A stretch of DNA of 64,000 nucleotides from a virus (taxonomy: Duplodnaviria; Caudoviricetes). The notes beneath the pieces are model-generated. The model was not told where the DNA came from and did no database searches. It worked only from the letters and a program-made list of their open reading frames with translations. Position numbers and translations under genes: made by a program. Positions 378-64,000 of the stretch are shown here, in pieces (position 1 is the first letter of the stretch; every line of letters begins with the position of its first letter). The stretch spans positions 1 to 64,000 of IMG/VR virus record IMGVR_UViG_3300032272_000005; one strand, 5' to 3'.

Positions 378-905
378 CTATTTCTCTATTTTCTTAGATA
401 GTATAACCTCAAAACCGCCTTCGAATTGTCTAACCCTGCTCATTTTGAAGTTCCCCTGAAGAATACTTTTCCACCAGATATAATTCCGTAACAGGACATG
501 AGCATTGCGCCCATCGTCAAGAAACTTGGTGGCAGGTCGGGTTGATATAACTGCAAAAACTTTACCAGCCCCTACACGATCCCGAATATCGTCAAGAACC
601 CTTGCGATTTGTTTTGGTTCAATATGCTCAAGCACATCCAGACAGGCCACAAGGTCAAACGTGCCGCCTGGTTTTTCTGGGAAGGTACTCGGATCATAGT
701 TGGTGCACTTGAGATCACTGTATTTATGCAGGTAATTCCCAAGCGTTCCCTTGCCACAACCATAATCAAGAACCGTTTTAGCTTTGGTCAATTCAGCGAG
801 TTCCAGAACATGCCCAAGCCAATAGTGCCCTGATGATCCGTAGCCCGTTTTCGAATGTAGTTCGTTTTGCTGCTTCAAATATCCCTTGGTAATCATTTCA
901 AGCAA
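378..905 (-). CDS. Class I SAM-dependent methyltransferase
   Basis: VLDYGCGKG motif I; FDLVACLDVLEHI. Confidence 0.85.
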   Translation of the reverse strand: MLEMITKGYLKQQNELHSKTGYGSSGHYWLGHVLELAELTKAKTVLDYGCGKGTLGNYLHKYSDLKCTNYDPSTFPEKPGGTFDLVACLDVLEHIEPKQIARVLDDIRDRVGAGKVFAVISTRPATKFLDDGRNAHVLLRNYIWWKSILQGNFKMSRVRQFEGGFEVILSKKIEK

Positions 906-1615
906 TCCTTGTGCACCATTATGTGATCGCCTGACATGATTTTCAGAGTTTGGTAGCCATGTTCTTTAAGCAGGTTTGCCGCGCCTTCTGGATCAAAACC
1001 GTAGTAATCAGTTCCTTTCTTTTGCTCGACAATGATCAGGGGTTTATATTCATTGATCACCTTCAAACCCCCTTCGATTATCTTTTGCTCAAAACCTTCG
1101 CAGTCGATCTTCAGCACGCCCATTGGTTTCCCGTCTTGGGCCAGTGCCTCTGGTAATATATCGTCAAGCCTACACATCTTCGCTTTGATGGGGTTCGGGG
1201 TTTCTTCCCCCGCTTTCATCGCGTGCGTGTTGCCTGTGTTGTGCGGGTTGAAATGCAGGATCAATTCTTTGGTTTCATCACCAAGGGCGCATTCAACCAT
1301 CTTCACATAATTCGGCTGGACATTCTTCCAGTAAATTTCCCGCATTTGTGGGATGGGTTCAAAGGCCACAACCGAAGCCATGCGTTCCTGCCATTGCATA
1401 GACCACAGGCCAACATGTGCCCCAACATCTACAAAGCATTTGTCTTTGCAGTTTTCAATATACGTCATGGCATATTTCATGGCAGCTTTTTGTTTCTTCC
1501 ACTGATAGGTGATTTTCCCATCTTTTACGTGGCGTCCTTTGCTGGCTACCATCCAGTGCCGCAGGTGGTGTTCTTGGGCTGGAAGATGAACCCCCTCAAC
1601 TAAAACGCTATCCAT
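893..1615 (-). CDS. FkbM-family methyltransferase
   Basis: FVDVGAHVGLWS, AFEP and LKIDCEGFE motifs. Start re-assigned to ATG 1615 (AGAGGA RBS, overlaps the upstream stop). Confidence 0.85.
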   Translation of the reverse strand: MDSVLVEGVHLPAQEHHLRHWMVASKGRHVKDGKITYQWKKQKAAMKYAMTYIENCKDKCFVDVGAHVGLWSMQWQERMASVVAFEPIPQMREIYWKNVQPNYVKMVECALGDETKELILHFNPHNTGNTHAMKAGEETPNPIKAKMCRLDDILPEALAQDGKPMGVLKIDCEGFEQKIIEGGLKVINEYKPLIIVEQKKGTDYYGFDPEGAANLLKEHGYQTLKIMSGDHIMVHKDCLK

Positions 1616-2420
1616 AGAAAAATCCTCTCCGTTTATTAGCTGGCACGTCCAGTATTTTCTGAACCGCCGTTCCATTTTGTAATTCTTCGTAAGTCATATC
1701 ACAGCCGTGTAAAGTGCTGATCAATTCTTCAATCTTTTCTTTACTTGGCATGATCGCTTTACCAATCTCTGGTAGATAAGCAGGTGCACATTCGGACAAG
1801 GCACAGTGTAATGTGCAGAATGCAGGAACACCCGCCGCCAGTGCTTTCAATGTGATCGCGGATGAAAGGCTGATTACCAGCCCCACGCGGCTCAATTGGC
1901 TGTCCAAGGTTTCATGTTCTGGATGCGCTCTCGTAGGCTTGTGTCGCACGGTTACTTTGTACCCAAGATTGCCCAAACGCTGCGAAACACTGGCTACCCA
2001 TTCGGCTTGTGAATATGATAATCCCAAATGATCAAAGAATTCCTTCGACTGAAAACAGACCAAGGCCTCATCCTCTTGGACGTCTGAGCGGCCCACAGGG
2101 GCGATTAAGCTGTTTTGATACATGGCTCGTGGTAAATCTGCGTAATGGGGCTGTACACCGTTCCAGCACCATCTGAGCGTCGGTGTTGCCTTACTTGTCA
2201 CCCAGCCGTTGTCCAGATATATTGCACGGCCCTGACGCCGCTTCTTTTTGAACAGGGCGCGAGTTTTGTCCAGTACACCATAAACTACCAGCACTTCCTC
2301 GTCTCCGACGCCGCCCCCCGTGATTATTCGTGTCGGGTGTCCAAGCGAACGTGCACCTTCTGCAAATGTCTCTGCGATTTGTTCACCTTTGGGTTTGGTG
2401 AATAGAAAGACGAACTTCAT
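1608..2420 (-). CDS. Capsule-synthesis (KpsS/KpsC-like) GT-B glycosyltransferase-like protein
   Basis: YLDNGW, VRHKP and SSAITLKALAAGVP resemble Capsule_synth-family motifs. Start re-assigned to 2420 by ATGA overlap. Confidence 0.5.
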   Translation of the reverse strand: MKFVFLFTKPKGEQIAETFAEGARSLGHPTRIITGGGVGDEEVLVVYGVLDKTRALFKKKRRQGRAIYLDNGWVTSKATPTLRWCWNGVQPHYADLPRAMYQNSLIAPVGRSDVQEDEALVCFQSKEFFDHLGLSYSQAEWVASVSQRLGNLGYKVTVRHKPTRAHPEHETLDSQLSRVGLVISLSSAITLKALAAGVPAFCTLHCALSECAPAYLPEIGKAIMPSKEKIEELISTLHGCDMTYEELQNGTAVQKILDVPANKRRGFFYG

Positions 2421-5438: not shown

Positions 5439-5467
5439 GGCTTAAACCTTTATGTGGATTTAGACAA

Positions 5468-6677: not shown

Positions 6678-7694
6678 TTAAGTTACGCACTCGAAACCGA
6701 TTTCAAAAGCGTTTGCGTCGGTTTCTGTGATTGGTGCGGTGTCGTCTGGATCATTCTGCCATTCAAAGTGGCGTCCCTGAAAAGTGCCATTTTCCAGGGC
6801 TTGGGTATCCCCTGTGTAATTGATCCCTCCTGATCGAAGGACGGCTCGTATTTGTTGTGGTGCAGCCCCATCACTCTGAGCGCGGTAGTTGATCCCTACA
6901 CCGTGAATAGCCCAGTTGTTTGCTATTGCGGCGTTCACGTCTGTGGCAGCGAATAAAGCAACCAGACCATTAGTACCAGCACTCAAAAAGGTTGTATCGT
7001 CCTGCCCAAAATTATCCACGGACAAATAGCCCCCGTTGGTGTCTTCCCCATCCCAGTCCATTGTCACCCCATCAGCTTCGGGCAGTAACTCAGCGACATG
7101 ACAACCAATGGTACATTCATCTGAAATAATGAAAGAAGAACAGGTCGCGCCCGTACTTGACAGGAATGGGGACTGCCACCCCACACGATCTACATCTGTT
7201 GAAGTTCTGAATATAGTGTCACCCTCAAAAGACATAACTAACTGGCCCCGCATATAGACACGAATGTATCCATCAGAATTACCTAGTTGCCAGTTCACGT
7301 CAAAGTCCCAAACTGCATTTTGGGAAGCCTGTATTATGTTTGGCAATGGCTCTACCAATGTGGCGAACCCTGACCCATTATGGTACTGGACATACATTGC
7401 GCCATTGAAGAAAGACACGCGAAACAGTTCTTCTGCATTACTTTCATTCCAAAGGGCAAAGACATGCTTATCCGCTACCGAGGGGGATGTTCCCCAGTGG
7501 AATTGCATATGCGCCCATCCCGTTGCCAGTGCTGCCCCTATATCCGTAAAACCGCCGTTCCGTACCGTGCCCCGTAGTGTAACACCGCTCGTAGTCCATG
7601 GTTCATCGTCCCCAAGTGTAGCACTTTCAGCCCCTCCTGTGGAATTCCAATCTACCATGTGCCCAAAGCTTGGGGCTGCTACATAAATTGTCAT
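6678..7694 (-). CDS. Tail tip/receptor-binding protein (paralog B)
   Basis: As for paralog A; LamG-like N-terminal half inferred. Confidence 0.6.
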   Translation of the reverse strand: MTIYVAAPSFGHMVDWNSTGGAESATLGDDEPWTTSGVTLRGTVRNGGFTDIGAALATGWAHMQFHWGTSPSVADKHVFALWNESNAEELFRVSFFNGAMYVQYHNGSGFATLVEPLPNIIQASQNAVWDFDVNWQLGNSDGYIRVYMRGQLVMSFEGDTIFRTSTDVDRVGWQSPFLSSTGATCSSFIISDECTIGCHVAELLPEADGVTMDWDGEDTNGGYLSVDNFGQDDTTFLSAGTNGLVALFAATDVNAAIANNWAIHGVGINYRAQSDGAAPQQIRAVLRSGGINYTGDTQALENGTFQGRHFEWQNDPDDTAPITETDANAFEIGFECVT

Positions 7695-8419
7695 AGGCGA
7701 ATGCCTTTGAATGTTATTGAAATATTAGCAAGAGTATCGGCGTCTCCATACTCATCAGAGAAAATTGAAAATACGTCACCAGCTACGAACGACGTTTCGA
7801 CCAGAACCGTAAATACTCCTGTTGCACTGGCATTGAATAAGATGTTTCCAAACGGGGTGCCGTTCTTCTCCAATGAGAATGCTACCGCGCCTGTGGATGT
7901 CACGGCTGCGTCAGCCAGAGAACCAGTTGCACCTGCTGGGATGCTGAAAGGCGTTACCACTTTGTAACGGAATACCAGTTCTTCGGTTGTTGGTACTCCT
8001 TGGATATACATGCCGATATCAAAGGATGAAGCCGCCGCCCCCACGCTGATTAAGGTGATCTCAGACCCATCCGAATGATAAGATGCAATGGCCCCTGCCG
8101 CCAGTTCGATTGCAAGGGACGTAGCGTCTTCCGTTTCGATGGAAACAACGGCGTCAGTCTGGTTGTAAACTGTGAAGTGCTTGATAATCCCCGCAGGGAT
8201 GAACAGCGGTGTTTCGGTGCCAGTCGTGCCAGTTAATCGGAAAATCGAATAGCTTCTGAACTCAAGATCACTAAGCAGAACGTCTGTGGTCGCGTCGGTC
8301 ACTTTATCCAGTATAGAATTCATGGCATTGTCGAGCGCGTCTACCGCAGCGTTCACTGTGGTTTCTTTGTTATTCTGAGCCGCCCCGACGTGGGCTATTG
8401 CTAGATTTGGACTTACCAT
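7691..8419 (-). CDS. DUF2793-containing tail fibre protein
   Basis: N-terminal L.IAHVGAAQNNKETTVNAAVDALD motif; directly after the large tail protein. Confidence 0.75.
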   Translation of the reverse strand: MVSPNLAIAHVGAAQNNKETTVNAAVDALDNAMNSILDKVTDATTDVLLSDLEFRSYSIFRLTGTTGTETPLFIPAGIIKHFTVYNQTDAVVSIETEDATSLAIELAAGAIASYHSDGSEITLISVGAAASSFDIGMYIQGVPTTEELVFRYKVVTPFSIPAGATGSLADAAVTSTGAVAFSLEKNGTPFGNILFNASATGVFTVLVETSFVAGDVFSIFSDEYGDADTLANISITFKGIRL

Positions 8420-12112: not shown

Positions 12113-12578
12113 TTTGAACCCCTGTATAGTCGTAAGCCCTTGTGAATTTGCGGGACTTATGGTTGCTATGTAAATAGCCTATCACGACTTTCTTCTCGGT
12201 GCCATAGGCATGAATGATTGCACCCGTGGTAGCGTCCACTACAATCCCAGCATGGTGGGGGGTTCCCCCATATGAGAAAACTACCGCCGTCCCGTTCTTC
12301 ACGTCCTTGGGTAAACAAGGTGTCATTGCCATATCAAAGTACGTCAAAAGTGTGGTGTTTGGAATACGCTTGTAGGGGGGCACTTTCAATCCACGGGGGA
12401 TCATGTCCAATTCATACCCAACGGCTAATATAAGGCCAACACAGTCCACTCCAGCACGGTTTGAACCTTGGTGCCTCCATGTTACCCCAAGATATTCTCT
12501 GGCAACCCGAACTATGTCAGACCGTTTAACTGTTGGGACGTTTCCCGTGATCTTGAGTTCACGACATTTATTTAGCAT
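12105..12578 (-). CDS. NlpC/P60 tail peptidase (GTA g14-like)
   Basis: YLGVTWRHQG...GVDCVGL and HAGI catalytic Cys/His. Confidence 0.9.
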   Translation of the reverse strand: MLNKCRELKITGNVPTVKRSDIVRVAREYLGVTWRHQGSNRAGVDCVGLILAVGYELDMIPRGLKVPPYKRIPNTTLLTYFDMAMTPCLPKDVKNGTAVVFSYGGTPHHAGIVVDATTGAIIHAYGTEKKVVIGYLHSNHKSRKFTRAYDYTGVQNG

Positions 12579-19332: not shown

Positions 19333-19348
19333 AGTGATCTTGAGATCA

Positions 19349-20668
19349 TTATGTGAACAGGATTTCCAGTTCATCATTACCAGACAGACGAGCAAGTGAG
19401 CCGTCAATACTGAACACTCGGATGTTGTTACGATCCGAATACCCGATACCAGTGATTTGTTGGTTCGGTGCGTGTAGTAAAACGATGTTTCCATCTACCG
19501 TACCGTGGCGAACCCACCATTCTACCGAAGTACCGTTCTCTAAATAAGACCAGAGCGGCTCTACAGACGCAAGGACGGCTTCTGGGTCATAGGACACAGT
19601 TGGTTCCCGTGCGGTAAGGAATGCGCCCTCAGACGCTTCTGAGGCGTTGATGCAATCGCGGATAGCAATGTTGTTAGCCATGTCCACGGCCCATTGTGAA
19701 GCACATAGCGAAACTTCTTTCGCAGCGTACCGCTGTGCAATCGACATTGCAGCGTATTCAACTTGCACAGGATCGGTATCTTCAAACGTACCTTCGAGTG
19801 TAGTTTCGTCAACCTGCGCGTTGTAGGTTCCCGTGAATTCGAAGTCGAATGTTGGGAAGCCGCCAATGGCTGCATTGATAGCAACCGTGCCGCGTGCACC
19901 AATTAAGCGGTGGCGGATCGCCTGACCAGAACTATCAGGATACTGGATGTCCATCGTGACACTTTCGATGTTGTCAGTGATTGGCTTATACAGATACCCG
20001 ATTGGGCGGATATGGACAAAGTAAACGTCGCCTACGGCTGGATTGGTTGTCTGGAAGTCAGGTGTGAAGCGTGCAATCTCTAAACCGTCATTATCATGCA
20101 GTCCGATTTCCACGCCGTCAGTCAGGATCACTTCGTCAGTGTCCGCCATTGCGACTGCGTTCAATCCGCCCACAGTAGTGTCTGCTTCGGCTGGATGGGT
20201 GATTGCAGCCACGGCTACGCCCGTTCCGCCAGTTGTGGTTATTTCCACACGCGCTTTCAAGTAGACGCCGCCTGTATAGGTGGTTGTCGCGCCGTAAAAG
20301 TTCATGTCGCCTGTGTTGTCTGTATGAGGGACGACACGGAAGACGTTTTCAAAGGCTGTATTGATTTGAGTTTCCCCGAAACCGCAAGCCTTCAAAAGTG
20401 AACCGATGCGCGGTGCAACAGAAGCGGCTGTATTACCATTGGATTTGACTTCCAGTGAAAAGCGCATTTTCCCGACTTTACGGGTAACGAGATTTTCAAA
20501 AGGTGATATGTCATTTGAGACAACAGCCCTACGTTGGGTTGTGATGTCTGGTGCAAAATCTGGTGAGATAACTTCGAATGCGTCTGTGGAAGCCGTTAAT
20601 GCTTCCGCCACGTTGAAAACGCTTTCGGTCTTTGCGAGTAGTAATCCGCGTGTGAATTGGATAGTCAT
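19349..20668 (-). CDS. Major tail tube protein
   Basis: LLLAKTES.., LLKACGF, F.F.FTG.Y and R.D.N motifs of siphophage tube proteins; position after the terminator gene; RBS GGAGG. Confidence 0.85.
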   Translation of the reverse strand: MTIQFTRGLLLAKTESVFNVAEALTASTDAFEVISPDFAPDITTQRRAVVSNDISPFENLVTRKVGKMRFSLEVKSNGNTAASVAPRIGSLLKACGFGETQINTAFENVFRVVPHTDNTGDMNFYGATTTYTGGVYLKARVEITTTGGTGVAVAAITHPAEADTTVGGLNAVAMADTDEVILTDGVEIGLHDNDGLEIARFTPDFQTTNPAVGDVYFVHIRPIGYLYKPITDNIESVTMDIQYPDSSGQAIRHRLIGARGTVAINAAIGGFPTFDFEFTGTYNAQVDETTLEGTFEDTDPVQVEYAAMSIAQRYAAKEVSLCASQWAVDMANNIAIRDCINASEASEGAFLTAREPTVSYDPEAVLASVEPLWSYLENGTSVEWWVRHGTVDGNIVLLHAPNQQITGIGYSDRNNIRVFSIDGSLARLSGNDELEILFT

Positions 20669-23366: not shown

Positions 23367-23396
23367 TCTGGGAGGGTCTTTAGTGTGATCTTGAGA

Positions 23397-23774
23397 TCAC
23401 TTGGGTTCGGGGATCGTATCCTCAAATCTTTCATGCTGGGCACCATCAAGTTTTATGCCAGCGGCGTTATCACAATCAAGCATCTTCAACCGAAGTGGGA
23501 TATTATTCCCGTGTCCCAGTTGGTTTACAAGCCACCCTACACAGTGCGTTTCATCTTCTGGGCCATGTTCATGGCAGGACATGGCGTTAACGGCTCTTAG
23601 GGGATGTTCAGGGTCGGTTATGGTACTTTTAAGAGCCTTGTGTTTGTCCACGTCATACCCATTTGGGATGGCATAGGGATCAGTTGATACTTTCCAAGGG
23701 CACTTGTCGCATTGTTTCAGGCGTTTTAGTTTCCAGCCCATCAAGCGTCCACCCCCTCTAACCAGATAACCCAT
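23397..23774 (-). CDS. Cys/His-rich hypothetical protein (DUF6283-like)
   Basis: QCDKCPW, MSCHE and HCVGWL motifs; likely start is MGWK. Confidence 0.55.
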   Translation of the reverse strand: MGYLVRGGGRLMGWKLKRLKQCDKCPWKVSTDPYAIPNGYDVDKHKALKSTITDPEHPLRAVNAMSCHEHGPEDETHCVGWLVNQLGHGNNIPLRLKMLDCDNAAGIKLDGAQHERFEDTIPEPK

Positions 23775-36444: not shown

Positions 36445-36999
36445 TTAAATCCCTGCAATGGGTTTGTCAACCCCCATAGGTGTTCCAGTAATGATTGCAA
36501 GTAACGCTTCTGATTTATTGACAAGACCATTACCCGCTCTTGTAGCACCCTTGTCCAGCAAGGCATCATATAGCAAGTCACGTTCCCTTTCGGTAAAATA
36601 GAAGGCGACGCAGCGATCTGCCAAAGCCTCTTTACCCGCTGCGAGACGTCTGAGGTTTTCCAAGGATGTGCTTTGTATCTCCCGTATGGTCATACGTTCA
36701 CGGATGTCGAACCCGCGTTCAGCACTCAGCAAAACTTCACGCGCCTTACGGATACCAAGTTCCAGTATATCCTCTAGGCTAATCAGCTTATCTTTAAGCC
36801 CGTTCCATACGTTAAGTTGAATGTATATCTGGCGTTTAGATACGCCTATGATGTCCGCAATTTCTTGGCTATCCATGCCATAATCTCGCAAGACGCTTAT
36901 GAGAAAACCAATCTCGATACTGTTCTTAGTTGTTTTGCGGTTTAGACTTTTGAGTTTTTGAATGGCTTCTTCTAAATTCAGGGGTCTTGTATAGTTCAT
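36445..36999 (-). CDS. HTH DNA-binding protein (ParB/KorB-like HTH)
   Basis: GMDSQEIADIIGVSKRQIY helix-turn-helix; monocistronic from promoter 37032-37060. Confidence 0.7.
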   Translation of the reverse strand: MNYTRPLNLEEAIQKLKSLNRKTTKNSIEIGFLISVLRDYGMDSQEIADIIGVSKRQIYIQLNVWNGLKDKLISLEDILELGIRKAREVLLSAERGFDIRERMTIREIQSTSLENLRRLAAGKEALADRCVAFYFTERERDLLYDALLDKGATRAGNGLVNKSEALLAIITGTPMGVDKPIAGI

Positions 37000-39971: not shown

Positions 39972-40069
39972 TGATAATCTCCAAATGTGGTGTTGTCCTA
40001 CATCGTCGTAGAATACCCTTAGTATACCCCCCTACATTTGGTTTGTCAACCCCCGTGATCTTGAGTTCA

Positions 40070-40753
40070 CTAATAAGGTTTGATCATATCGGGTGTTAGA
40101 ACACCATCCCACTTGGTTTTCTTTGTGAACAACCCAAGCTGTGTATCCATCCTGATATTCTTGGTTCGCTTGCGCCATGTCCATAAGGTCGCCTGTATAT
40201 CACACGGCGGTATATCGGTGCTACGGGTAAGTGCTCTTACGGCCTTCTCTACTTCAGTATAAAGCGGCCCACCCCCACGCAGTTTGAAGTTGGCTTCTTT
40301 CATGTTCATATCTTCACCACAGGCAATAGCAATCATATGCCCGTCAACCGTGACCAGTTTGCTATCCCCCAGATACAGAATATTGTCTCGGAATGCAGTA
40401 ATCTTGCGGCCTTTGACCTTATCCAGAAATGATACCTCGCCTGTCAGATAGCCCCATGCCCGTTGCCCACAACTTCTGTAAGTGCTGATTATGCAATCAT
40501 CGAATGTCTTGCCCGTTGTCAGGGCTTGCAGGATGCTCACCAAGCTGCGCAGGTTGCCGTGGTAATCATTGTTCGGAGACAACGCTACAAACGCCTCCAC
40601 GGTGGGGATGAATGGCACTTTGTAATGCTCGGCAATCCCGCGTAAGGTTTTCTGATATACGGGGTAGGCGGCTCTGCCCATCTGTAAATCAATCGGGTCG
40701 ATCTCATCCCACGCCTTGCTTATGTTCTTTTTATAATCGTAAGCGTATGCCAT
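40070..40753 (-). CDS. DUF7178-like protein, possible HhH DNA-glycosylase-fold member
   Basis: ALSP.N....N, G.KI.AF..NI, VTVDGH and QA.LW...R motifs. Confidence 0.55.
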   Translation of the reverse strand: MAYAYDYKKNISKAWDEIDPIDLQMGRAAYPVYQKTLRGIAEHYKVPFIPTVEAFVALSPNNDYHGNLRSLVSILQALTTGKTFDDCIISTYRSCGQRAWGYLTGEVSFLDKVKGRKITAFRDNILYLGDSKLVTVDGHMIAIACGEDMNMKEANFKLRGGGPLYTEVEKAVRALTRSTDIPPCDIQATLWTWRKRTKNIRMDTQLGLFTKKTKWDGVLTPDMIKPY

Positions 40754-42473: not shown

Positions 42474-43796
42474 TTATGCCTCCCACATATAGGTGCCTGT
42501 TGGGACGTTCGTTCCACTGGATTTGAATGATCCCACAGGCAGGTCACGCCAGTTGTAAGACCATTTCTCGTCAGGGTCGCCACAATAGCCGTGATCGTAT
42601 CTCGCCGTGGCAGGTAGGATCGCGTACAGTTGTCCGCCTGGTTTTAAGAATTTCTTGGCGTGATCAACATGCTTCTGATAGTGCTTCCCCGCGAATGGAG
42701 GGTTCATCACCACAAGATCAAAGACGGGTTCTGGTGGCATGTCCAGAAAGTTGGCCCGTGTTACCGCCAGTCCACTGTTGATGCACTGTAGATGCCGTTC
42801 AGCGTGCACCTCGACGCCTTGTATGCTGATATGTGGGTGGGCTTCCAGCATTTGCTTCATCATGTTGCCCGTACCGCACGACGGTTCCAGCACTTTGGCC
42901 CCCTGTGAGACGTGCATATCATTCAGCATGAACTGCATAGCGGCTGGTGGCGTAGGGTAATATGCCAAGTCCTTGGATAAGGCCGTGCCAGTCTTCTTGT
43001 ACCGCTCTGCCGCCGCTTCAGGGCTATCGGGTAATACCTCACCATAAAACTCCGCAAGACCCTTGTTGATCGTCTTTAATGCCTTGGGATCGAATATCAG
43101 GTGGCAGTTATTGTTCTTGAACCATTTGACCTTGACGCCGTTGTATACGGGCAGTTCCATACGGCGTGCTGACTTCATCAGATCATCGAACTCGCCATAG
43201 TCAATCCGTGGTTCCCCATCCAGTGTATTCAAACAGTTCAGCACGTCTTTGACTTGATCACGCCCCCATCCATGATACTCTCCGCAACTTTCGACAATGA
43301 TCCGCTTGGGCAATCCTTTGACGCCTATCCGTACCTTGTCATGTGACTTGTATGCGGGGTCAAGTTGGGTGAAGCATTCAGCCAACCCCTTCAATACGTG
43401 GTGACGTGGATCAATCAGATAATCAGCGAATAGTTCGCGGATGTTATCCATAGTGAATTCATCAGGCTTGGTGAACTTGAGTTCAAATGACTTACGATCT
43501 TTGGTAGATGCAATCGCGTCGATCTGCAACCCGTTATACAGATACTTCCATGCGGATTGCAGCAAGGATGCCTCCATATCGTTCTGGGTGAGGTGTAGCC
43601 GCTCTCGTGTCATTGGTTGCCCAAATGTGCCCTGAATGCAGACAATCGCCTCACACGCCTTCACAGCCGCGTCGAAGGCCATGATCCGCTCTGGGATCGC
43701 AGCACGCTGTTCATTGTAGGTTTCAATGGCGTCGGATAAACGGGGCCTGATTGCAACTTCGGTGCTTGGTGAGGGTTTCCCTTTGATGTGTATCAT
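42474..43796 (-). CDS. DUF4942 domain + N6-adenine methyltransferase
   Basis: AWKYL, KWFKNNNCHL.F and YYPTP; VLEPSCGTG motif I; MNPPF motif IV. Confidence 0.8.
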   Translation of the reverse strand: MIHIKGKPSPSTEVAIRPRLSDAIETYNEQRAAIPERIMAFDAAVKACEAIVCIQGTFGQPMTRERLHLTQNDMEASLLQSAWKYLYNGLQIDAIASTKDRKSFELKFTKPDEFTMDNIRELFADYLIDPRHHVLKGLAECFTQLDPAYKSHDKVRIGVKGLPKRIIVESCGEYHGWGRDQVKDVLNCLNTLDGEPRIDYGEFDDLMKSARRMELPVYNGVKVKWFKNNNCHLIFDPKALKTINKGLAEFYGEVLPDSPEAAAERYKKTGTALSKDLAYYPTPPAAMQFMLNDMHVSQGAKVLEPSCGTGNMMKQMLEAHPHISIQGVEVHAERHLQCINSGLAVTRANFLDMPPEPVFDLVVMNPPFAGKHYQKHVDHAKKFLKPGGQLYAILPATARYDHGYCGDPDEKWSYNWRDLPVGSFKSSGTNVPTGTYMWEA

Positions 43797-48593: not shown

Positions 48594-48605
48594 ATGATCT
48601 TGAGA

Positions 48606-49037
48606 TCACTCGGCTATCTGTAATGAAACCCACTTGAACATTTCGGCACGCAGTTCTGCCATTGTATGCATCCCTGTGAAATGGTTTGTGCTTTCCCAAT
48701 CTCCAGCATAGGTGTGCATTTCACAACTTCCATCAGCCTCGAAATGTATCAGGATAATCAATCCGTCGATCCGCCACAGTTCTTCAGGGCAACCACATTC
48801 ATCACTGGGCAAGCGTGCAAGTAATTCTATAGGGGCTGCACCGCCTGTCGGGGTGGCTTTGTAATTAACCCGTATGCATTCCAGTTCAGACACACCAGCG
48901 GGGCTTATATACGCCCTCTGTTTATTTGCGGGGTATGGGGTGGCTGGGCAAGGAAGTGTCGGAGAGCATTTCTCACAGTGCTGTTTTATGTGGATACCAT
49001 GTTTACATTTTAGCATCAGCGTCTCCCCCATAACCAT
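48606..49037 (-). CDS. Hypothetical protein
   Basis: CKHG.H...HC.KC N-terminus. Confidence 0.5.
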   Translation of the reverse strand: MVMGETLMLKCKHGIHIKQHCEKCSPTLPCPATPYPANKQRAYISPAGVSELECIRVNYKATPTGGAAPIELLARLPSDECGCPEELWRIDGLIILIHFEADGSCEMHTYAGDWESTNHFTGMHTMAELRAEMFKWVSLQIAE

Positions 49038-49300: not shown

Positions 49301-50317
49301 TTATGTATTTTCATCCGCCGATTTCAAAAATTTGCCCCAGAAAAATACGGTAGGTCGCTTGGGTTCACTGACCATATTGTACCCCCCTGTGATCTTGAGA
49401 TCACTGATCACGTTTTGCATATTCTTTAGGGCCATACGGGGATGCCTGGTTTTTTCTGCCAAGGTCTGAAGCCGTATTGCTTCCTTGTTTAGTTCCCGCA
49501 CCAGTCGATCCGTGATGTCTGGGAATAGATCATACATCTTAGTTTTCCTTTAGGTATACCGCCAGTGCAGCTTTACCTTCCTCGGATACCGCGAACCCAG
49601 CCGTTCCTAAGAAATCTCGCAGATGGTGCCAGTGTGGATTGGCTTTCATAGCTTTGGCAGTTTCACAATCTTCTTCGATCCCAAAGAAATTGCGGGTTAC
49701 TTCACCGCATGGATCGTTAGGACGCCCTAGAGCATGATCCATATCATCCATGTGACTGTCTTTTAAACTTCGGTTATTCATGAGAAGTGTCCTTTGGTTC
49801 GGGTGTGTCGGATATAATCCTGTTGAGTTCTGGGTACTCCCTGCACACCAATAATTTTGAAAATCGTAAGGCTCGGAACTGTGTTGAAGATGTTACCTTA
49901 TCTTCCAGTTCTTTTAGACCCGCCAAAATTTCCCGCGCTGTTGTATCATCATGTGCCATTGGGTTTTCCTCTCAAGGCGTTTCTAGCAGCAGCATAATCT
50001 TCCATGAGAATATACGGCGTGCTTACCATATTGCAGGTTTTATGGGTCTTGGTAATATCGAAGCCATATGCGGCTATGGTTTTCTCCAGTGCCCTGACGA
50101 ATGGTTCTAACGCCGCTTCCAGTTGTTCAACATGGGTGGCAACCTCTTTCAGATACTCGGCGGATAGTGGATCACCTGCGTAATCAATAGCGTCTGCCAT
50201 TTCTCTTATTTTGTCAGGTGAGGTGTTCATCGTGTAGCCCCCGCATAATAGTACCAGATACCGTTTACTTGACGACGGTATAGATCGGAGTTCTTGAACC
50301 CACCCCGTTCTTCCCAT
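49301..50317 (-). other. Run of 4 small hypothetical ORFs (49301-49537, 49539-49781, 49774-49959, 49949-~50230)
   Basis: Tight packing. Confidence 0.5.
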
Positions 50318-51596: not shown

Positions 51597-51679
51597 GCTA
51601 TTCCAAGTGATCTCAAGATCATCGCCTTGTATTTGGTGTATAGCTTTATGGTATTACCCTAACAATGGTTTGTCAACCC

Positions 51680-53559: not shown

Positions 53560-55502
53560 AGGGAATAATCCTTCATTTCAGTACGCCGCTTGGCGTCGTT
53601 AAAGGCAGCTTTCGCATAGCCAGCAGATACCTCATTGGAAGCCGCTTCGACTAGGAACGGTGACGTATACATCAAGCGGGAAAGAATTTGCTCTACCCCG
53701 TCCTGATCGTCTGGAACCATTTCATCAAACTCTTTTTCAAGGGTCAGTAATTGTGTCAGACATGCCTCGGATGGGTTGTCTTCATAATCGCGTATGCATC
53801 TTTGCATTTTGGACGCCAGAACTTTAATGGCTTTTTGGGTTGCCCCTGCCGCGCCTTGCTCACCTTCATTGATCGGGGGTCGTGGGGTTATGCCTTGCCC
53901 CGTGCCTTCACCTGCTGGTGCTTCAGCTTGTGGTGTGATCAAGGTTTCTTTGAATTCCTCTGCCACTTTGATGTCAAGACTTGCAATCGTTGCCAGTTGG
54001 TCAACCCACTCTGACAAAGAAATACCTTCAGTTCTTTGCAACATTGAAAGTGCACGCAATTGTAGGTTCACGTCGTTCACTGTAAGCGGATTAGATACGA
54101 ATTTGAAAATACCTTTGGGATCAATTTCTCGCATGAAACTCATGTTGTAGCGTTCGTCTTCCTCAGTCCGTTCGGGTGCGAATACCTGTGCCTCGGCAAC
54201 CACGTAGGATGCGTGTGCTGTGGCGAAGTTATAACTATCAGATGCGCCCAAGAATATCGAAGGCATACGGAAAGAACGGCGTATCCGCAATTCATTACGC
54301 TCATCATATTTTTCGAAGGTACTGTCAGCGTCATTGGCCCCGAACTTTTCGACTTTCACTGTCGCGGCTTTCTCGCTGTCGAGATTACCAGACGCAGGAA
54401 CTTCAACAGCCACCCCACGTTGCTTCTTAGAAGATTGCCCACCCAGATATGAGTTCAGTGTCTTGGCTACTTCCTCAGATACAATACCGCCTGAGATAAA
54501 TACGATAACGGGTGGTACACCCCCACTGTGGAAGAATGCCAGATTGTGTTCTTCCGCCATACGTGATCCCAGAACCGACGGTAGCTGCGTGATCCAACGT
54601 GGCATACCATAAGGTGAGCGCACGTCTTCAATGTCTTTGTCGTGTACTATGGAATGTGCCCGACGCGCGGCTGGTAACTTCTCACCCTCTTTGGCCCATT
54701 CACCAGTTACGCGGTCAAGATCACGACTTGCACCATACTCTTTGTAGTAAATCAGCTTAGTGCCAATCTTCTGCACAAAACGGCGTTCTGCCCTCATAGT
54801 TTTTAGTTCAACTTCTTTACCACCCCGCATTACTTTCACAGTGACAGGTACGGCTGCATCCAGTTTCACCAGACGCATTGATTTGGACGGGGCACGACGC
54901 AAGAACGCCAAATCACCCGTCATAGTATGTTCAAAGACTTTGTAACTGTTGCCCGTGTGGTGTAGATCGCGGCGTAATTCTTTACGGGTTTTCATAAAGG
55001 ACTTGCGCGGAAATACCTCGGCCAAAAATTCTTCGATGTTTTCTTGTATAATTTTTTCTTCATCAGACAGATCAATGTTGTTGCTGTCTTTGGGTAAGAT
55101 TTTATACCCTGTCCCTGAGATATTTGTGATCATGGCTGCAATACAGGGTTCAAGTGTGTTGTTCTCAGACACCAAGCGTTCCAGCCGTTCAGGGGCTATT
55201 GGGGGTGCCAGCAAAGATGGCCCCGCGCTTATCCGAATGTAGTCATGGAAAAATTGGTCTTCCTGATCCAACAGTGTGGCGGATATATCCCCCCCAGTTG
55301 CGAGTTCTTTCCTGAACTTAGCGGCCTGTTTTGGGTCAAGATGGCTTTCGGCTTCTTTGGCCAATTCTTCACGGGTAAGCCCCGTCAATGCTGTCATGGC
55401 TAGGACACCATAATTGTGTCGGCCCCCATCTTCGGCTTTGAATACGTTTTGATTATCGCCTGTCAAGACGCGGCCTTTCGGGGGTTCTGTTTTCTTTGCC
55501 AT
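53556..55502 (-). CDS. Portal protein (PBSX/XkdE-like)
   Basis: YGMPRWI, N..FF..GGVP...I.ISGG, I.R.FR.P...LG....YN.ATA. Confidence 0.9.
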   Translation of the reverse strand: MAKKTEPPKGRVLTGDNQNVFKAEDGGRHNYGVLAMTALTGLTREELAKEAESHLDPKQAAKFRKELATGGDISATLLDQEDQFFHDYIRISAGPSLLAPPIAPERLERLVSENNTLEPCIAAMITNISGTGYKILPKDSNNIDLSDEEKIIQENIEEFLAEVFPRKSFMKTRKELRRDLHHTGNSYKVFEHTMTGDLAFLRRAPSKSMRLVKLDAAVPVTVKVMRGGKEVELKTMRAERRFVQKIGTKLIYYKEYGASRDLDRVTGEWAKEGEKLPAARRAHSIVHDKDIEDVRSPYGMPRWITQLPSVLGSRMAEEHNLAFFHSGGVPPVIVFISGGIVSEEVAKTLNSYLGGQSSKKQRGVAVEVPASGNLDSEKAATVKVEKFGANDADSTFEKYDERNELRIRRSFRMPSIFLGASDSYNFATAHASYVVAEAQVFAPERTEEDERYNMSFMREIDPKGIFKFVSNPLTVNDVNLQLRALSMLQRTEGISLSEWVDQLATIASLDIKVAEEFKETLITPQAEAPAGEGTGQGITPRPPINEGEQGAAGATQKAIKVLASKMQRCIRDYEDNPSEACLTQLLTLEKEFDEMVPDDQDGVEQILSRLMYTSPFLVEAASNEVSAGYAKAAFNDAKRRTEMKDYSL

Positions 55503-58500
55503 TAGTTCATACTCACCTTTTCAAGTCCCGCCAAATTCAAACCTAATTCACCGTCCACAGTAAATTGTAGTTCTGGCTCCCAGTCAAATTTTTCCTTAAA
55601 CGGTAAATTCTCCATTGTTTCTACAGCAAATCCCAAGGCTTTCATAGGGTCATTTTCATCCACGTACCATAACCCCTGATCGTGTATCTGTGCAAAAGGT
55701 ACTAACAGATCAGGTTGTTGTTCTTCGATTAGTCCCATACTCCACCACATCATGTCAACCAGTGTCCCTTGTATTGGTGAATTGATCGCCTGACGCTCGG
55801 AGGTTGAACGGGTCTTTTTGATGGGTGAGTATATGTTGTGTAAGCGTCTGGTTCTGCCAAGTGGTGATCTCACCATTCCAGTTTGTTGCGCTTCCATTAT
55901 CTGCCGTGAGTGCCACGCTTTCAGGCCAGGATATAGATCAAAGAATGCGTCACGCATGGCCTCGGCTTCTTCGATTTCCACCTTCACCCCGTATACGGCG
56001 TCGGCATACATCATAAAGCCATATGCCCCCATGCCATACAGCAACCCAAAATTACCAGCCTTGCCCCGTTGTCGAAGTTGCTCGTAAGCGGGTCGATCCA
56101 TTTTCTTTAGGTTCATGGCTTCTTCATATGTCATGGCGTTTGTTGTCGCGGCTGTCAGCGCGTGCAGATCAACCCCGTTCTTGTACGCCGTGATCATCTG
56201 TTGTTCTTGGCCCCAACATGCAGCGACTTTCAATTCGCCTTGGGAATAGTCAACCGCGCATATCAGTTTGCCCTTTGGTGCTATGATGCATTCGCGTAAT
56301 CGCTTGCCCCAGTATGAGTGCTTGGGCACTGTGTTGTGGACATACAACCCATTAGCCGTGAAGTCGTGCGTGTCTGGTACTGTGAAGTCATAGACATATT
56401 CCCCTACATTGGTGGGCAGAACTGTATCCACTTGCAACCCAGACCGCTTGCGATACTTGTAATCATCGGTCACGCGGTCTTCGGGCCAATCATCAGGAAG
56501 GCACCCCGCCCATGTAGCTGCACGTATCGCAGCCACCCCACTCCACGTAATTGTGCTGGTGAACTCAAGATCACGCAGATGAGGGGCATCAATTCCTTTG
56601 AGCAGACTTTCTTGTTGAACCACTCGTGCCAGTTCGAATGGCAGTTCTATCCTCAGTCCGACTTTGCCGCCCTTCATACGTGGGTAAGTTGCCATTGCCC
56701 CTACCATTCCACAGAGTACCCAGCCCATTGCTTTGGTTGCCCGTAGATGTCTTGGGATTTCTGGGGTCTTGCCATGCTCGAAAGCGGCTCTGAATTCTTC
56801 GGCCCCGTCTGACCAATAACCCCGTTCGCAATACAGCGTGAAGATCGCCACCCCGTCCACAGTATCCACCGTATATTTCTCTTGAAGTGTCGCAGCCCAC
56901 ACTCGGACTGGCCCCGCTACCCGTTCTGGAACCTCAATGTGCAAACGTGCCAATGTATGTGAAACCCGCCCAGACGCTAAACAGACGCCCATAGCACGGC
57001 ACATTTCCTTGGATACCCAGTCGGGTGCGTCCAGTAGGTCAATTCCATGATGTTGTATCAGGTGATCAGATGCGAGTAGGTTCTTGGCCTTGCACCAGCC
57101 CCTCTGGGTCTTCACTGGATGTTCTGGTGTACACTTTAGTTTCAGACCGTTCTTCAGTGTCAGTTCAACTATGTCACGCCGCCACGACTTGAACACGTTA
57201 GTGGTTTGTTGCCACCCTTCTAAGCCCCAGACTATTATTTCAGCTTTATGAATAGGAATGCGGCTGTCACCCACGATAGGGTCAATAATGCTTGCAGCCG
57301 TTTTAAGCCCCTCTGAGGTGATTATCTCGGTTTCCCCCGTAACACATTGGAAAGCGGGGTTAGTCGCCGTACCGCGCCCTGTAACGGTGCCACCACCCCC
57401 TTCTCCGCCTTTCGTTCCTTCCCCAACCTTGTGAATGATGTATGATGCGTGCCAGCGATCATCATAGCGCAGGTGTTTCAGGAAGCCCTCGTAATATGTG
57501 CCATACATCTTGGCTACAGATTTGTAATCCAGATATTGTTCGATCAATGGTCCAGCTATAGGGTGGTCTTTAAACTGTTCTAAGTGGAATTGTGATGTGG
57601 AAGGCTTTTGTGTTTTCTCAGTTACCTCAATAGGCTTGATACCACACCCCAATTGATTAGTCGGGCTGAACAAGAACTCGGCAATCATATTTGGCTTGGA
57701 TAGCGGGGCGCGTCCATGTTCGTCTATGCCCCCATATTTGTCCATGAGTTTGGTTGGCATCATATCCGCAGCTTTGCGCATACTTTCGGTTTGCCTTCCT
57801 TCCAGATCGGCCCCGTATTCGTGGAACTTTTCACGATCTACGCAGACGCCATGATGCTCCATTTTGTGCAGGGCAATCAAAGCAGGGTGAACCACATTCA
57901 TGTAGAGCGACGTTAGGGACTGTTTAGACGGGCCTCCATTCTGTGTTGGGTTGTCCTTGATCAACTCCCCCCGAATGGCCTTGTATACCTTTAGCCCCGC
58001 GTCTGTGTCACCACCTGCATAGGGCAGCAAATCGGGCTTCGGGACTTCATTCATTTTGGCTTTGTTGTAGGTACGGTTAAAGTGATCATCGTACCCCCCA
58101 AGTAATGGTGCATAAATCTTAGTGTGGACATTAAGCGTGTTAGCCCGATTTTCTTCAAGTAATGATCCGCCATTGCAGCTATCGAAGGTGAAGTTCGTGA
58201 ATACCACTTGCCACTTTACCCTCATCCAGCCCATGTCAAATTTGAAGTTAGCCCCAACAACCTTGACGCGCGGGTCTTTGGCAAGCTTCCGCATGTCGAT
58301 TATGAATTTCTTCATCTGCCATTCAGTTAAATCTGGCATGTAGATCACGTCGGATACCCCATCCGCTGCCGTGAATGATGCGCTCAGAATATTCTTATCC
58401 TTGAACCATGGGAATAGCCCTTCGGTTTCCAGATCACAGCACAGATCAACGGGTTTACCCGTCTGTTTGAATTTAGCGTTAATATAGGCGTTCACCCCAT

Positions 58501-58903
58501 CAAGATTGGTGACATAGGCGTAATCACCAAGTTCTGGTTCCATATTGCCAGTCTGCTCAAAGCGTTGGTACTGGCGAATGTCGCACATAAAATCTACGAA
58601 GTTGGTGAAGTCCATGTGTTTGATCTGTGGGGCATATGTCACCCCAAGATGTATAGGGTGCACCCATCCGTCAGGGTGTGCGGAAAACAACTTCCCACGG
58701 TTCGAGACAATGCCACCTTTGTTCGGTATCCACCCCGCCGCTTGGATCATATCCACGGCTGGCTTGCCACATGCAATCAAGAGCGTTTCTTCTGAGGGTT
58801 GTAGATACTGTGGATTTAGTTGGACTGTTGCGTTAGGAATACTTACGTCGGCAAGAGCCGACTTCACCAAGTCTGGATCGCATTTCTGTACTATTAATCT
58901 CAT
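55502..58903 (-). CDS. polA: Family A DNA polymerase with N-terminal UDG-like remnant, 3'-5' exonuclease and an intein
   Basis: DLETEG (ExoI), ANFKFD (ExoII), YAGGD (ExoIII); motif A DYSQGEL, motif B R..GKAGNFGLLYG, motif C IHD; AINSPIQG. Confidence 0.95.
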   Translation of the reverse strand: MRLIVQKCDPDLVKSALADVSIPNATVQLNPQYLQPSEETLLIACGKPAVDMIQAAGWIPNKGGIVSNRGKLFSAHPDGWVHPIHLGVTYAPQIKHMDFTNFVDFMCDIRQYQRFEQTGNMEPELGDYAYVTNLDGVNAYINAKFKQTGKPVDLCCDLETEGLFPWFKDKNILSASFTAADGVSDVIYMPDLTEWQMKKFIIDMRKLAKDPRVKVVGANFKFDMGWMRVKWQVVFTNFTFDSCNGGSLLEENRANTLNVHTKIYAPLLGGYDDHFNRTYNKAKMNEVPKPDLLPYAGGDTDAGLKVYKAIRGELIKDNPTQNGGPSKQSLTSLYMNVVHPALIALHKMEHHGVCVDREKFHEYGADLEGRQTESMRKAADMMPTKLMDKYGGIDEHGRAPLSKPNMIAEFLFSPTNQLGCGIKPIEVTEKTQKPSTSQFHLEQFKDHPIAGPLIEQYLDYKSVAKMYGTYYEGFLKHLRYDDRWHASYIIHKVGEGTKGGEGGGGTVTGRGTATNPAFQCVTGETEIITSEGLKTAASIIDPIVGDSRIPIHKAEIIVWGLEGWQQTTNVFKSWRRDIVELTLKNGLKLKCTPEHPVKTQRGWCKAKNLLASDHLIQHHGIDLLDAPDWVSKEMCRAMGVCLASGRVSHTLARLHIEVPERVAGPVRVWAATLQEKYTVDTVDGVAIFTLYCERGYWSDGAEEFRAAFEHGKTPEIPRHLRATKAMGWVLCGMVGAMATYPRMKGGKVGLRIELPFELARVVQQESLLKGIDAPHLRDLEFTSTITWSGVAAIRAATWAGCLPDDWPEDRVTDDYKYRKRSGLQVDTVLPTNVGEYVYDFTVPDTHDFTANGLYVHNTVPKHSYWGKRLRECIIAPKGKLICAVDYSQGELKVAACWGQEQQMITAYKNGVDLHALTAATTNAMTYEEAMNLKKMDRPAYEQLRQRGKAGNFGLLYGMGAYGFMMYADAVYGVKVEIEEAEAMRDAFFDLYPGLKAWHSRQIMEAQQTGMVRSPLGRTRRLHNIYSPIKKTRSTSERQAINSPIQGTLVDMMWWSMGLIEEQQPDLLVPFAQIHDQGLWYVDENDPMKALGFAVETMENLPFKEKFDWEPELQFTVDGELGLNLAGLEKVSMN
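56333..57346 (-). mobile_element. Intein (338 aa) in the DNA polymerase, with a probably degenerate homing endonuclease
   Basis: Starts CVTGET after NPAFQ; block B L.CTPEHP; ends VYDFTV...F.ANGLYVHN followed by Thr. Confidence 0.92.
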
Positions 58904-60275: not shown

Positions 60276-60276
60276 T

Positions 60277-61191: not shown

Positions 61192-61240
61192 AGTGGGTGG
61201 TGTTGGGCTAGCCTATTCCCCCATTAATGGTTTGTCAACC

Positions 61241-62205: not shown

Positions 62206-62461
62206 CGTCTTGCCACCAGATGTTGACTGATTTTGGTGCAGCTATAACAACTTTGATCCGCTTGCCCTGTGAAGATCGCCTGTCCACCCCGACAAACACT
62301 TCGGGCCATATCTCGAAAGTACGATCCCATGACAACCCGAAGCGATCCCCATTGTCCAGTTCCACTAAGCAAAATCCAGGCCGCTGAATGGAAAGAACAG
62401 TCAGATTGTGATCCCCTACGAAGATCGTTTGCTTTTCCAAGACTGAACATATTTTCGACAT
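62189..62461 (-). CDS. CsrA/RsmA-like protein
   Basis: IKVVIAAPKSVNI resembles CsrA VRIGVNAPKEVSV; QTIFVGDHNLTVLSI resembles ETLMIGDEVTVTVLGV. Confidence 0.5.
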   Translation of the reverse strand: MSKICSVLEKQTIFVGDHNLTVLSIQRPGFCLVELDNGDRFGLSWDRTFEIWPEVFVGVDRRSSQGKRIKVVIAAPKSVNIWWQDDAEIT

Positions 62462-62473
62462 TTCGGCACATTC

Positions 62474-64000
62474 TCAGGTTACATCCAGTAGGTCAAGTAA
62501 ATCTATTGATTTGGTAAACTTGGAGGGTGTGAGCGTTCCTGTTGCGCTACGGAATTCTGTTAGGGCATTTCCTTCGGTTCCGAAGACGATATGCCCCGCC
62601 AAACTATCTCTGAAGTATTTGATAAACCCTTGATGAATAACCCCCACTTTGTTGGAGATCAAATCCTCACCATGACCAGTAAAATCCACTTCAAATGCAG
62701 CATGGTTTTTGCTGTCGGCTTTCTTGTGTTTTTCAGCCGCGATTATTTTTTCTTCCGTATCTGCCATGTTGCCAAGGTCAAGCACATAGGTGCGGTGCGT
62801 TCCCGCGTCTGAGTTTTTAAGGAAGAACACGTTATCAGATATGTCGCCGCCATGCTTATCGAATTCAGCTTTTAAAATGTCGTACAGTTCGGTAACGTCT
62901 CCACCAACGGATATATCCATTTTGCCAACCCAGACGCCGCCAGTGCCCCCGTCAATCGTTATAGTCTCACCCCTAACCATTGTGTTACCACCGATCTTTA
63001 CAAAGTCTACACCGTCGTTATGGGTGAACTCAAGATCATCAGCCCCGACAACTGCCGAAACTCCAATGCCCCTTGCGACAACCGCAGAGTGACATGTGAA
63101 GCCACCCGTCTTGGTCAGGATTGCACCCGCCGCAGCCATTTGTGGGAAGTCTTCGGGTTGGGTATCTTCCGCAACCAGAATACAGGTTTTGTCGATGTCG
63201 CCTAACGGGGTGTCTCTCCAAACGATCCGACCAGAAAATGCAGATGGTGAAGCGGCAAGCCCAACAACACAGGGTTCATCTTTGGAAGATACGAATGAGA
63301 CTTTGGAACTTTCAACCATTCTGCGTGTCAGGCGTTTCTTCAAATAGTTCAAAGGGATTTTTTCCTCTTTGGCAAATTGGACAGCCGTGTCGATCCGTGC
63401 CTTGGCAGACATTTTAGCTGTCCGCGTTTGCAGCACATAAAGCGTTCCGCTCTCGACAGTGAACTCAATATCTTGGACGTCTTTGTAGCGGGTTTCCAGT
63501 TTCCCGCACAGGTCACGTAACTTCACATAAAGCGCGTGTTTCTCGCCGCCCTCATCCCACAGTTCATTGATATTCTGCGGTGTGATTTCGCCTGACACAA
63601 TTTCTTCACCTTGGCAGTTGAACCCGATTTCACCAGTGATTTTATTTTCGCCAGTGGCAGGGTCGCGGGTGAACATTACGCCACTTCCAGAAAGCCCATC
63701 TGCGGTTCCCATTACCATGCGCTGGACTATACAGGCCGTTCCCATGTTATCGTCAATATCGTGCATCTTGCGGTAGGCTTTGGCGCGTGGTGTATTCCAG
63801 CTTTCGAATACTGCGGTGACGCATGAGGTCACTTGGTCAATTCTTTCAGATGGGATTGTCACGCCAGCCGCGTGTCCAAGTAAACGATCCAGCAATACAT
63901 TTTTGAAAGTGCCAAATGTTTCTGAGCGTTTCTTGATTTCATCCATCAGGTATTTCACCCGCTCTTTGGATATGTCTTTTACAATGGTCAACCAGCCCGT
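62474..64000 (-). CDS. PPDK-like ATP-grasp + phospho-His swivel protein lacking the PEP/pyruvate barrel (5' end outside the window)
   Basis: AVF.SWN..RA..YR, GTA..VQ.MV, SG.GV.FTRDP.TGE, QGEE.VSG, QD.EFT.E...LQTR and GG.T.H.AVVARG; the frame stays open to nt 64000. Confidence 0.9.
   Translation of the reverse strand, partial: TGWLTIVKDISKERVKYLMDEIKKRSETFGTFKNVLLDRLLGHAAGVTIPSERIDQVTSCVTAVFESWNTPRAKAYRKMHDIDDNMGTACIVQRMVMGTADGLSGSGVMFTRDPATGENKITGEIGFNCQGEEIVSGEITPQNINELWDEGGEKHALYVKLRDLCGKLETRYKDVQDIEFTVESGTLYVLQTRTAKMSAKARIDTAVQFAKEEKIPLNYLKKRLTRRMVESSKVSFVSSKDEPCVVGLAASPSAFSGRIVWRDTPLGDIDKTCILVAEDTQPEDFPQMAAAGAILTKTGGFTCHSAVVARGIGVSAVVGADDLEFTHNDGVDFVKIGGNTMVRGETITIDGGTGGVWVGKMDISVGGDVTELYDILKAEFDKHGGDISDNVFFLKNSDAGTHRTYVLDLGNMADTEEKIIAAEKHKKADSKNHAAFEVDFTGHGEDLISNKVGVIHQGFIKYFRDSLAGHIVFGTEGNALTEFRSATGTLTPSKFTKSIDLLDLLDVT

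Follow-up and report, generated by a model that had tools for sequence, protein, structure and literature searches.

The IMG/VR record IMGVR_UViG_3300032272_000005 is a phage genome (Caudoviricetes) of 87,332 bp with a 127-bp terminal repeat. Its first 64 kb (positions 1 to 64,000, here called the window) contain many copies of a 16-bp near-palindrome, gTGAWC-TTGR-GWTCAc, which recurs along the rest of the genome and is the subject of this study. Positions above 64,000 are genome positions beyond the window. Essentially all genes are located on the minus strand, and about 10% of the genome is free of genes. The window contains genes for a family-A DNA polymerase with an intein, a portal protein, a MuF-ADP-ribosyltransferase fusion and a tail tube protein. 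The replication and recombination set comprises DnaB-like and SF2 helicases, a primase, a RecA-like protein, an exonuclease and a RuvC-like resolvase, and a PPDK-like protein is accompanied by two phosphatases. No close phage record was found by megablast for a 12-kb stretch of the window. By portal, the nearest isolates (35-42% identity) are siphophages with genomes of 80-100 kb that infect Rhizobium, Rhodobacter, Stenotrophomonas, and Vibrio.

A near-palindrome repeated along the phage chromosome

In the window, 14 exact copies of the 14-mer TGATCTTGAGWTCA were counted, compared to none in 100 dinucleotide shuffles; the whole genome has 16, with the two further copies at 68192 and 85619. Allowing up to three mismatches to the 16-mer adds variants at 102, 703, 30144, and 43471. 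A matrix scan, for which the threshold was set above the best score from 10 Markov simulations, identified 23 sites of the form gTGAWCTTGRGWTCAc genome-wide, 18 of them in the window (Table 1). A sequence-only reading of the window had described a palindrome repeated genome-wide, and these counts bear it out. Among the exact copies variation is limited to position 11 (A or T). The site is preceded by G and followed by C, and conservation ends at 16-17 bp. A miniature inverted-repeat transposable element or other repeat element was rejected, as no conservation of the flanks was found beyond this length. The symmetry is that of a 7+7 palindrome about a non-palindromic TG/CA center. The CRP-like outline with an 8-nt center, which had also been pointed out, was recovered, since the blocks GTGA and TCAC lie 8 bp apart in every copy.

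The mean interval between sites is about 3.8 kb along the whole chromosome. The 23 sites are spaced more evenly than expected by chance, with a coefficient of variation (CV) of 0.54 and a largest gap of 7.6 kb (both P ~0.001), whereas the same test on the 16 exact copies alone was not significant.

Placement of the sites

Non-coding DNA is touched by 11 of the 23 sites. If the close relative G001 is included, 14 of the 24 sites touching non-coding DNA are located between -3 and +7 nt of the stop codon of the upstream gene, where about two would be expected, and the TGA inside the motif often doubles as this stop. The sites are set in intergenic DNA right after stop codons, and within coding sequence where such a spacer is lacking. 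The contacts with stop codons reported before at 19334, 23385, 28374, 40055, and 48594 were found again (0 to -3 nt from the upstream stop). An intergenic site is then followed by either a repeated promoter or a terminator-like hairpin.

The repeated promoter consists of the -35 box TTGACAAAC, 7 nt, the block AGGGG, 2 nt, and a weak -10 box, and is present in about 22 copies, all on the gene strand. A gap of 5-8 bp separates sites 40055, 34374, and 74894 from the -35 box downstream, compared to 19 bp for site 32459. This agrees with the earlier placement of 32459, 34374, and 40055 upstream of early -35 boxes, at distances of 19, 8, and 5 nt from the TTGACA box. The location of 51607 between promoter and ATG was confirmed as well. 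Across three genomes, eleven sites in either orientation end 5-8 bp ahead of a -35 box. Eight of these are contributed by G001 and a second relative, G003, at 6-8 bp and in both orientations. When only the complete genomes are considered (this one and G001), such a spacing of 5-8 bp applies to roughly a quarter of the sites, and two more precede a -35 box by 18-19 bp, with the remaining sites far from any promoter. The notion of a network of sites instead of a single operator holds: the sites are distributed genome-wide and a subset takes a fixed position beside promoters.

Further examples of the promoter family on the minus strand are found at 34357-34365, 32431-32439, and 51668-51676. The family carries a conserved leader ending in TTGGAGA ahead of the ATG and does not occur in the blocks of head, tail, and lysis genes that follow downstream of window position ~23990. 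G001 and G003 share it in the form TTGACGAAC / TTGACAAAC with a GGGG block.

Based on the open reading frames (ORFs) of the analysis set, 12 of the 23 sites are wholly intragenic, nine of them in ORFs longer than 300 nt. The copies within the intein and the PPDK-like gene, both noticed earlier, are among the coding copies (Table 1). Of the 28 coding copies in three genomes, 22 are read in the frame x-[D/E]-[L/P]-x-[F/I/C]-T, and the frame that would read TGA is never used. Furthermore, coding sites turn over between orthologues within one gene. In the PPDK-like gene, the site falls on alignment column 464 in this genome, G001, and G002, but on column 159 in G003 and G005, and is created each time by synonymous and conservative codon choices. 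The same pattern was observed in the DNA polymerase, portal, MuF, TerL-like, and ParB_N genes. The use of one frame, together with the turnover between orthologues, argues for selection on the DNA itself.

An RNA-level element, i.e., a terminator, a processing or antitermination hairpin, or a promoter of a phage RNA polymerase, would suit the many copies that abut stop codons and the three that precede terminator-like hairpins. It is nevertheless extremely improbable: despite the location of the genes on a single strand, both orientations of the site are found (7 vs 16 in this genome, 12 vs 13 in G001), and about half of the sites are intragenic. Moreover, the calculated energy of the RNA hairpin is -5.6 kcal/mol versus -1.5 to -2.4 kcal/mol where the W position breaks it, and the latter values belong to the form with W = T, which is found in 9 of the 16 exact copies. 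Mixed orientation and broken hairpin together argue for recognition of duplex DNA. The candidate of a phage-specific promoter was rejected on account of the mixed orientation and the many intragenic copies.

Table 1. Near-palindromic sites of the window and an example of the promoter family.
Feature	Position	Strand	Context
Variant site GTGAACTTGGGATCAC	102..117	-	Inside the 127-bp terminal repeat
Variant site GTGCACTTGAGATCAC	703..718	+	In coding sequence
Site in gene 7691-8419	8256..8271	-	
Site at the junction of genes 12568-13653 / 12105-12578	12547..12562	+	6 nt past the upstream stop codon
Site abutting the stop codon of the tail-tube gene 19349-20668	19334..19349	+	G+C-rich hairpin next
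Site overlapping the TGA stop of gene 23397-23774	23385..23400	+	Intrinsic terminator next
Site overlapping the stop of gene 28386-28685	28374..28389	+	Just before the head-gene block
Variant intergenic site, TTGG center	30144..30159	+	28 nt before the ATG of gene 29733-30116
Promoter-proximal site	32459..32474	+	TTGACAAAC-family promoter, -35 box 19 nt downstream
Promoter-proximal site	34374..34389	+	5 nt after the stop of 34394-34993; 8 nt upstream of a -35 box
Site amid short, weak ORFs (36059-36211)	36141..36156	+	
Promoter core TTGACAAAC (-35 box), example	40041..40049	-	
Site abutting the stop of the DUF7178 gene 40070-40753	40055..40070	+	5 nt upstream of a -35 box
Variant site in the DUF4942-methyltransferase gene 42474-43796	43471..43486	+	
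Site overlapping the stop of gene 48606-49037	48594..48609	+	Hairpin next
Perfect-arm site in a poorly coding stretch	49389..49404	+	
Site between promoter and ATG of gene 50352-51596	51607..51622	-	-35 box 54 nt upstream; ATG 11 nt on
Intein site of the DNA polymerase gene 55502-58903	56559..56574	-	Residue ~777; encodes RDLEFT
Site in the PPDK-like gene	63024..63039	-	Encodes DDLEFT; same alignment column in G001 and G002

Several other features of the genome were recorded. A 22-kb block of small, mostly orphan genes (28000-50300) is located between the MuF gene and the protease/capsid genes. Many of its genes have their own promoter, it has no counterpart in the relatives, and it is denser in sites (10 of the 23). 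Within it, ARAGORN called a tRNA with a CUA (amber-reading) anticodon at 30560-30634 (minus strand); the annotation of the distant relative DLP5 likewise includes a tRNA-Sup-CTA. The MuF-like head protein encoded at 51680-53293 (minus strand) carries an ADP-ribosyltransferase domain (Pfam ADPrib_exo_Tox, E = 8e-14). The DLP5 protein at this position is annotated with a ParB-like nuclease domain instead. The intein of the DNA polymerase (55502-58903, minus strand) comprises residues 569-857 (Pfam Intein_splicing), and in G001 and G003 the orthologous polymerases have about 300 residues more, which suggests additional or larger inteins. Finally, an HNH endonuclease gene (82632-83069, beyond the window) lies between a helicase gene and the next replication gene, and among the relatives compared it is present only in this genome.

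Relatives sharing the site design

An alignment-based scan of IMG/VR recovered 14 loci with portals 57-73% identical to that of the present phage. No relatives were recovered by a single-protein portal scan, and an exact-pattern scan of IMG/VR with a 15-mer returned only single chance matches. Five relative records, G001 to G005, were compared. All of them carry the site family, with lineage-specific centers and arms. In G001 the site reads GTGATC-TTA[C/G]-G[T/A][T/G]CAC and is present 25 times in 85 kb (CV 0.68, P 0.03), and in G003 it reads GTGAAC-TTGC-GTTCAC, with 11 copies in a 37-kb fragment. The outline GAAC-N4-GTTC of G002-G005 resembles the SOS box of Gram-positive bacteria; this genome and G001 have other arms, and the hosts of the clade are Proteobacteria. 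Avoidance of Dam/SeqA or of restriction was rejected as an explanation of the site, because GATC is not depleted and relatives use GAAC or GTGC arms.

More distantly, tblastn matches, including the TerL-like gene and helicases, connect this phage with a clade of isolates around DLP5, V-YDF132, the RHph phages, and RcZahn. When the full GenBank genomes of the cultured relatives were tested, a lattice of the form TGCAA-N4-TTGCA was found. DLP5 (Stenotrophomonas) has 31 such sites (CV 0.48, P < 0.0002) and V-YDF132 (Vibrio) has 25 identical copies (CV 0.57, P 0.0016). The evenness of spacing was not significant for the 17 sites of RHph_TM16 (CV 0.77, P 0.22), the 15 of RHph_Y1_11 (CV 0.69, P 0.11), and the 9 of RcZahn (CV 0.76, P 0.36). 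In VHS1, SIO-2, and KarBoss the half-site plus center is over-represented. The TGAWC version showed no enrichment in the three isolates scanned for it (RcZahn, DLP5, and RHph_Y1_11).

The two forms of the lattice have much in common. The phages share core genes, i.e., portal (40-42% identity), capsid (48%), DNA polymerase, the PPDK-like gene, and a family of 422-aa proteins described below. The sites have 5-6 bp arms and a 4-bp center that is often TTGA or TTAA (TTGA/TCAA in DLP5 and this phage, TTAA in V-YDF132 and RcZahn). A 14-16 bp site occurs every 3-4 kb, within genes as well, the sites are evenly spaced, and one of them precedes the gene of the 422-aa family. The difference lies in the arms, which are TGAWC here (TGCAC in G001) and not TGCAA. 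Judged by these sequences, this phage and its close relatives are a specificity variant of a clade-wide system. Palindromes or repeated motifs are not mentioned in the papers on DLP3 and RcZahn. The same design in G001-G005 and in cultured members of the clade extends the earlier observation to relatives, and the occurrence of the site family in independent assemblies and GenBank isolates removes the suspicion of an assembly artefact.

The distribution among hosts bears on a further explanation, in which the phage would recruit a CRP/FNR-like or other global regulator of its host. The half-site outline GTGA...TCAC would fit such a regulator, although the spacing of the half-sites is 2 bp longer than the canonical CRP-type spacing. 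Phages of Vibrio, Stenotrophomonas, Rhizobium, and Rhodobacter share one type of lattice, while the center of the site differs among close relatives. Specificity therefore follows the phage lineage and not the host class, and a host regulator is highly improbable.

Two of the distant relatives, DLP5 and DLP3, are temperate phages, the former having been recovered as a phagemid (PMC5834331, PMC7326821). This would be consistent with an immunity network, in which the repressor of a plasmid prophage occupies all sites and silences the lytic genes, and so would the many sites at gene ends and near promoters. The sequence-only reading had likened the sites to the stoperators of mycobacteriophage L5. 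Stoperators, however, lack symmetry, follow the direction of transcription, and are recognized by a monomeric immunity repressor (PMC4351075, PMC9283540), whereas the site described here is a near-palindrome in mixed orientation. In addition, a six-frame search with hidden Markov models (HMMs), including one ParA model, gave no match up to E = 1 for Phage_integrase, AAA_31 (ParA), or HTH_3 (Cro/CI-type), and the phage has a full replication and recombination set and its genes on one strand. The likeness to stoperators was not upheld, and we regard an immunity network as quite unlikely.

Candidate binding proteins and comparison with known systems

Taken together, the sequence evidence makes it reasonably probable that the near-palindrome is a docking lattice for a phage-encoded, sequence-specific DNA-binding protein, which would probably be dimeric. 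Such a protein would dock about every 3.8 kb. At the promoter-proximal sites the bound protein would touch or occlude RNA polymerase from about -50, and binding there may time the expression of early and middle genes. Distal sites and those within genes would serve as loading or nucleation points, from which the same protein could reach, mark, or compact the whole phage chromosome, as is the case for the KorB operators of RK2.

The first candidate for the binder is, tentatively, a protein of 422 aa encoded beyond the window at 73564-74832 (phrog_17202), whose family lacks a Pfam assignment. A conserved site plus promoter precede its gene. A site is located between the RuvC-like gene and the gene of the 422-aa family in this genome, G001, L176, DLP5, RcZahn, and V-YDF132, and in the latter five it is the perfectly symmetric, TTAA-centered form. 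This site, usually with a -35 box 6-8 bp on, is the one positional constant found. The family belongs to the core genes of the clade (41 phage records) and comprises 1,244 clusters (50% identity) at E up to 0.001 among 1.84 billion representatives. From its N-terminus, the protein consists of a helical domain, an acidic disordered linker, and two further helical domains. The central domain is confidently predicted to be all-helical (predicted local distance difference test mostly 83-93). If this protein is the binder, it might control its own gene via the conserved operator and, starting from the evenly spaced sites, coat or bridge the whole genome, a possibility that we put forward with reserve. 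Its DNA specificity may conceivably have been retuned between lineages, from TGCAA to TGAWC. The family could then even be a new class of phage chromosome-organizing or -marking protein without detectable relationship to ParB, KorB, or any structure solved so far, which is a speculative suggestion.

Several results weigh against this picture of a dedicated binder. No Pfam domain is shared by any of the 101 members of the 422-aa family. A Foldseek search of two family models against the PDB gave nothing better than E = 1, and profile searches against the PDB sequences, KorB entries included, gave nothing. Hints of a DNA-binding fold are limited to weak Atlas leads to DUF3102 and Plasmid_parti_N. 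Three Vibrio phages have a 422-aa homologue without a clear site upstream of its gene. The HMMs HTH_ParB, KorB (PF08535), and DUF3102 have no match in the genome even at E = 10. RcZahn has the lattice but no ParB_N match, which weakens the case for the ParB-type candidates considered below. Finally, gene layout could account for part of the even spacing of the sites.

As alternative candidates, three ORFs with a ParB N-domain were found beyond the window, at 68208-68849, ~71.4-72.0 kb, and 72010-72675. The first of these is IbrB-like and adjoins an IbrA-like protein with a PAPS-reductase fold. The frame at ~71.4-72.0 kb is overlooked by simple longest-ORF calling. The cassette at 68208-72675 (loci L123/L124), which precedes the small terminase gene, also holds a methyltransferase gene (70594-71433) and the gene of the IbrA-like PAPS-reductase/DUF3440 protein. 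A further candidate is the HTH_36 replication-initiator-like protein (84957-85994), which has one site within its own gene. The minus-strand gene 36445-36999, which had been proposed as the ParB/KorB-like helix-turn-helix binder, does not qualify: its product has no Pfam, PHROG, or PDB match, and the lack of an orthologue in G001-G005, all of which retain the site family, rules it out as the conserved binder.

The ParB N-domain proteins enter into two other explanations. The sites could be true parS centromeres of a plasmid-type partition system bound by one of these proteins. The three ORFs themselves, a C-terminal stretch of the IbrB-like protein that resembles a helix-turn-helix by eye, and relatives that can live as phagemids would be in line with this. 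The first reading had suggested a check for ParA, and matches to ParA (AAA_31, E up to 1, six-frame), HTH_ParB, and KorB are all absent; the sites are evenly dispersed and not clustered beside a par operon, and RcZahn has sites without ParB_N. True centromeres are thus very unlikely. Of the parS-like nucleation suggested before, a KorB- or parS-like way of working stays plausible, while a ParB/KorB DNA-binding domain found no support in the HMM matches.

Secondly, the sites could be targets of a DNA enzyme, i.e., of site-specific nicking of the T5 type, of base or backbone modification by the IbrA-like and IbrB-like proteins and a methyltransferase, or of recombination as a hot spot. Close relatives have conserved the cassette of ParB_N, two methyltransferases, and the IbrA/IbrB-like pair. 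All 14-16 positions of the site are invariant, the center included, and even spacing and indifference to coding context would suit a genome-wide mark. On the other hand, the fixed distance of 5-8 bp to -35 boxes and the conserved site before one gene look regulatory, RcZahn has a lattice without a ParB_N match, and the cassette was not found by tblastn in DLP5, RHph, or RcZahn. An enzyme target is therefore considered rather unlikely, and a docking lattice for a phage protein is the preferred explanation.

Genome-wide operator lattices have been documented for the KorB operators of RK2, the stoperators of mycobacteriophages, and the repeats of Cluster O phages, and a mechanism is known only for the first two. 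The closest published phenomenon is the 17-bp dyad TGTTCGG-N3-CCGAACA of Cluster O mycobacteriophages (Corndog), for which a dimeric DNA-binding protein was predicted, with a function unknown to the authors (PMC4351075). In both cases dozens of copies of a short dyad site occur without a sign of lysogeny. The dyads are likewise located between genes and near gene ends, about a third of the Corndog copies being intragenic, they have an asymmetric center without fixed orientation, and few copies are near promoters. However, Corndog belongs to an unrelated phage lineage with a host of another phylum, and sequence and spacer differ (N3 there, N4 here). The Corndog sites are denser toward one genome end whereas the sites here are evenly spaced, and the fixed distance of 5-8 bp to the -35 box, found for a subset here, sets the present lattice apart from Corndog.

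The closest mechanistic model, by analogy, is KorB on the IncP plasmid RK2, whose 16-bp OB operators precede promoters by either 4-10 bp or 45 to >1,000 bp (PMC11790492). Here too, 16-bp palindromic sites are spread over the replicon in promoter-proximal and distal copies, and on RK2 one protein, KorB, uses its operators to reach many promoters. KorB, a CTP clamp of the ParB family, has a defined DNA-binding domain and the partner KorA, and no match to KorB or HTH_ParB was found in the phage. The sites are more numerous here and many are intragenic. The stoperators of Cluster A phages (L5, TipsytheTRex) also form sets of tens of copies of a short site, often at gene ends, but they belong to temperate phages, and lysogeny genes were not found here.

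The same design is present in a large clade of phages that infect Proteobacteria and have genomes of 80-100 kb; its cultured members include DLP5, DLP3, V-YDF132, RcZahn, and RHph. Protein sequences have been altered to keep a site every few kb, which argues for strong selection for a function that has to extend over the whole chromosome. The two natural specificities (TGCAA and TGAWC arms) and the cultured members with 25-31 near-identical sites make the role of the lattice directly testable. This genome contributes a changed arm specificity, together with close relatives that show site turnover within orthologous genes.

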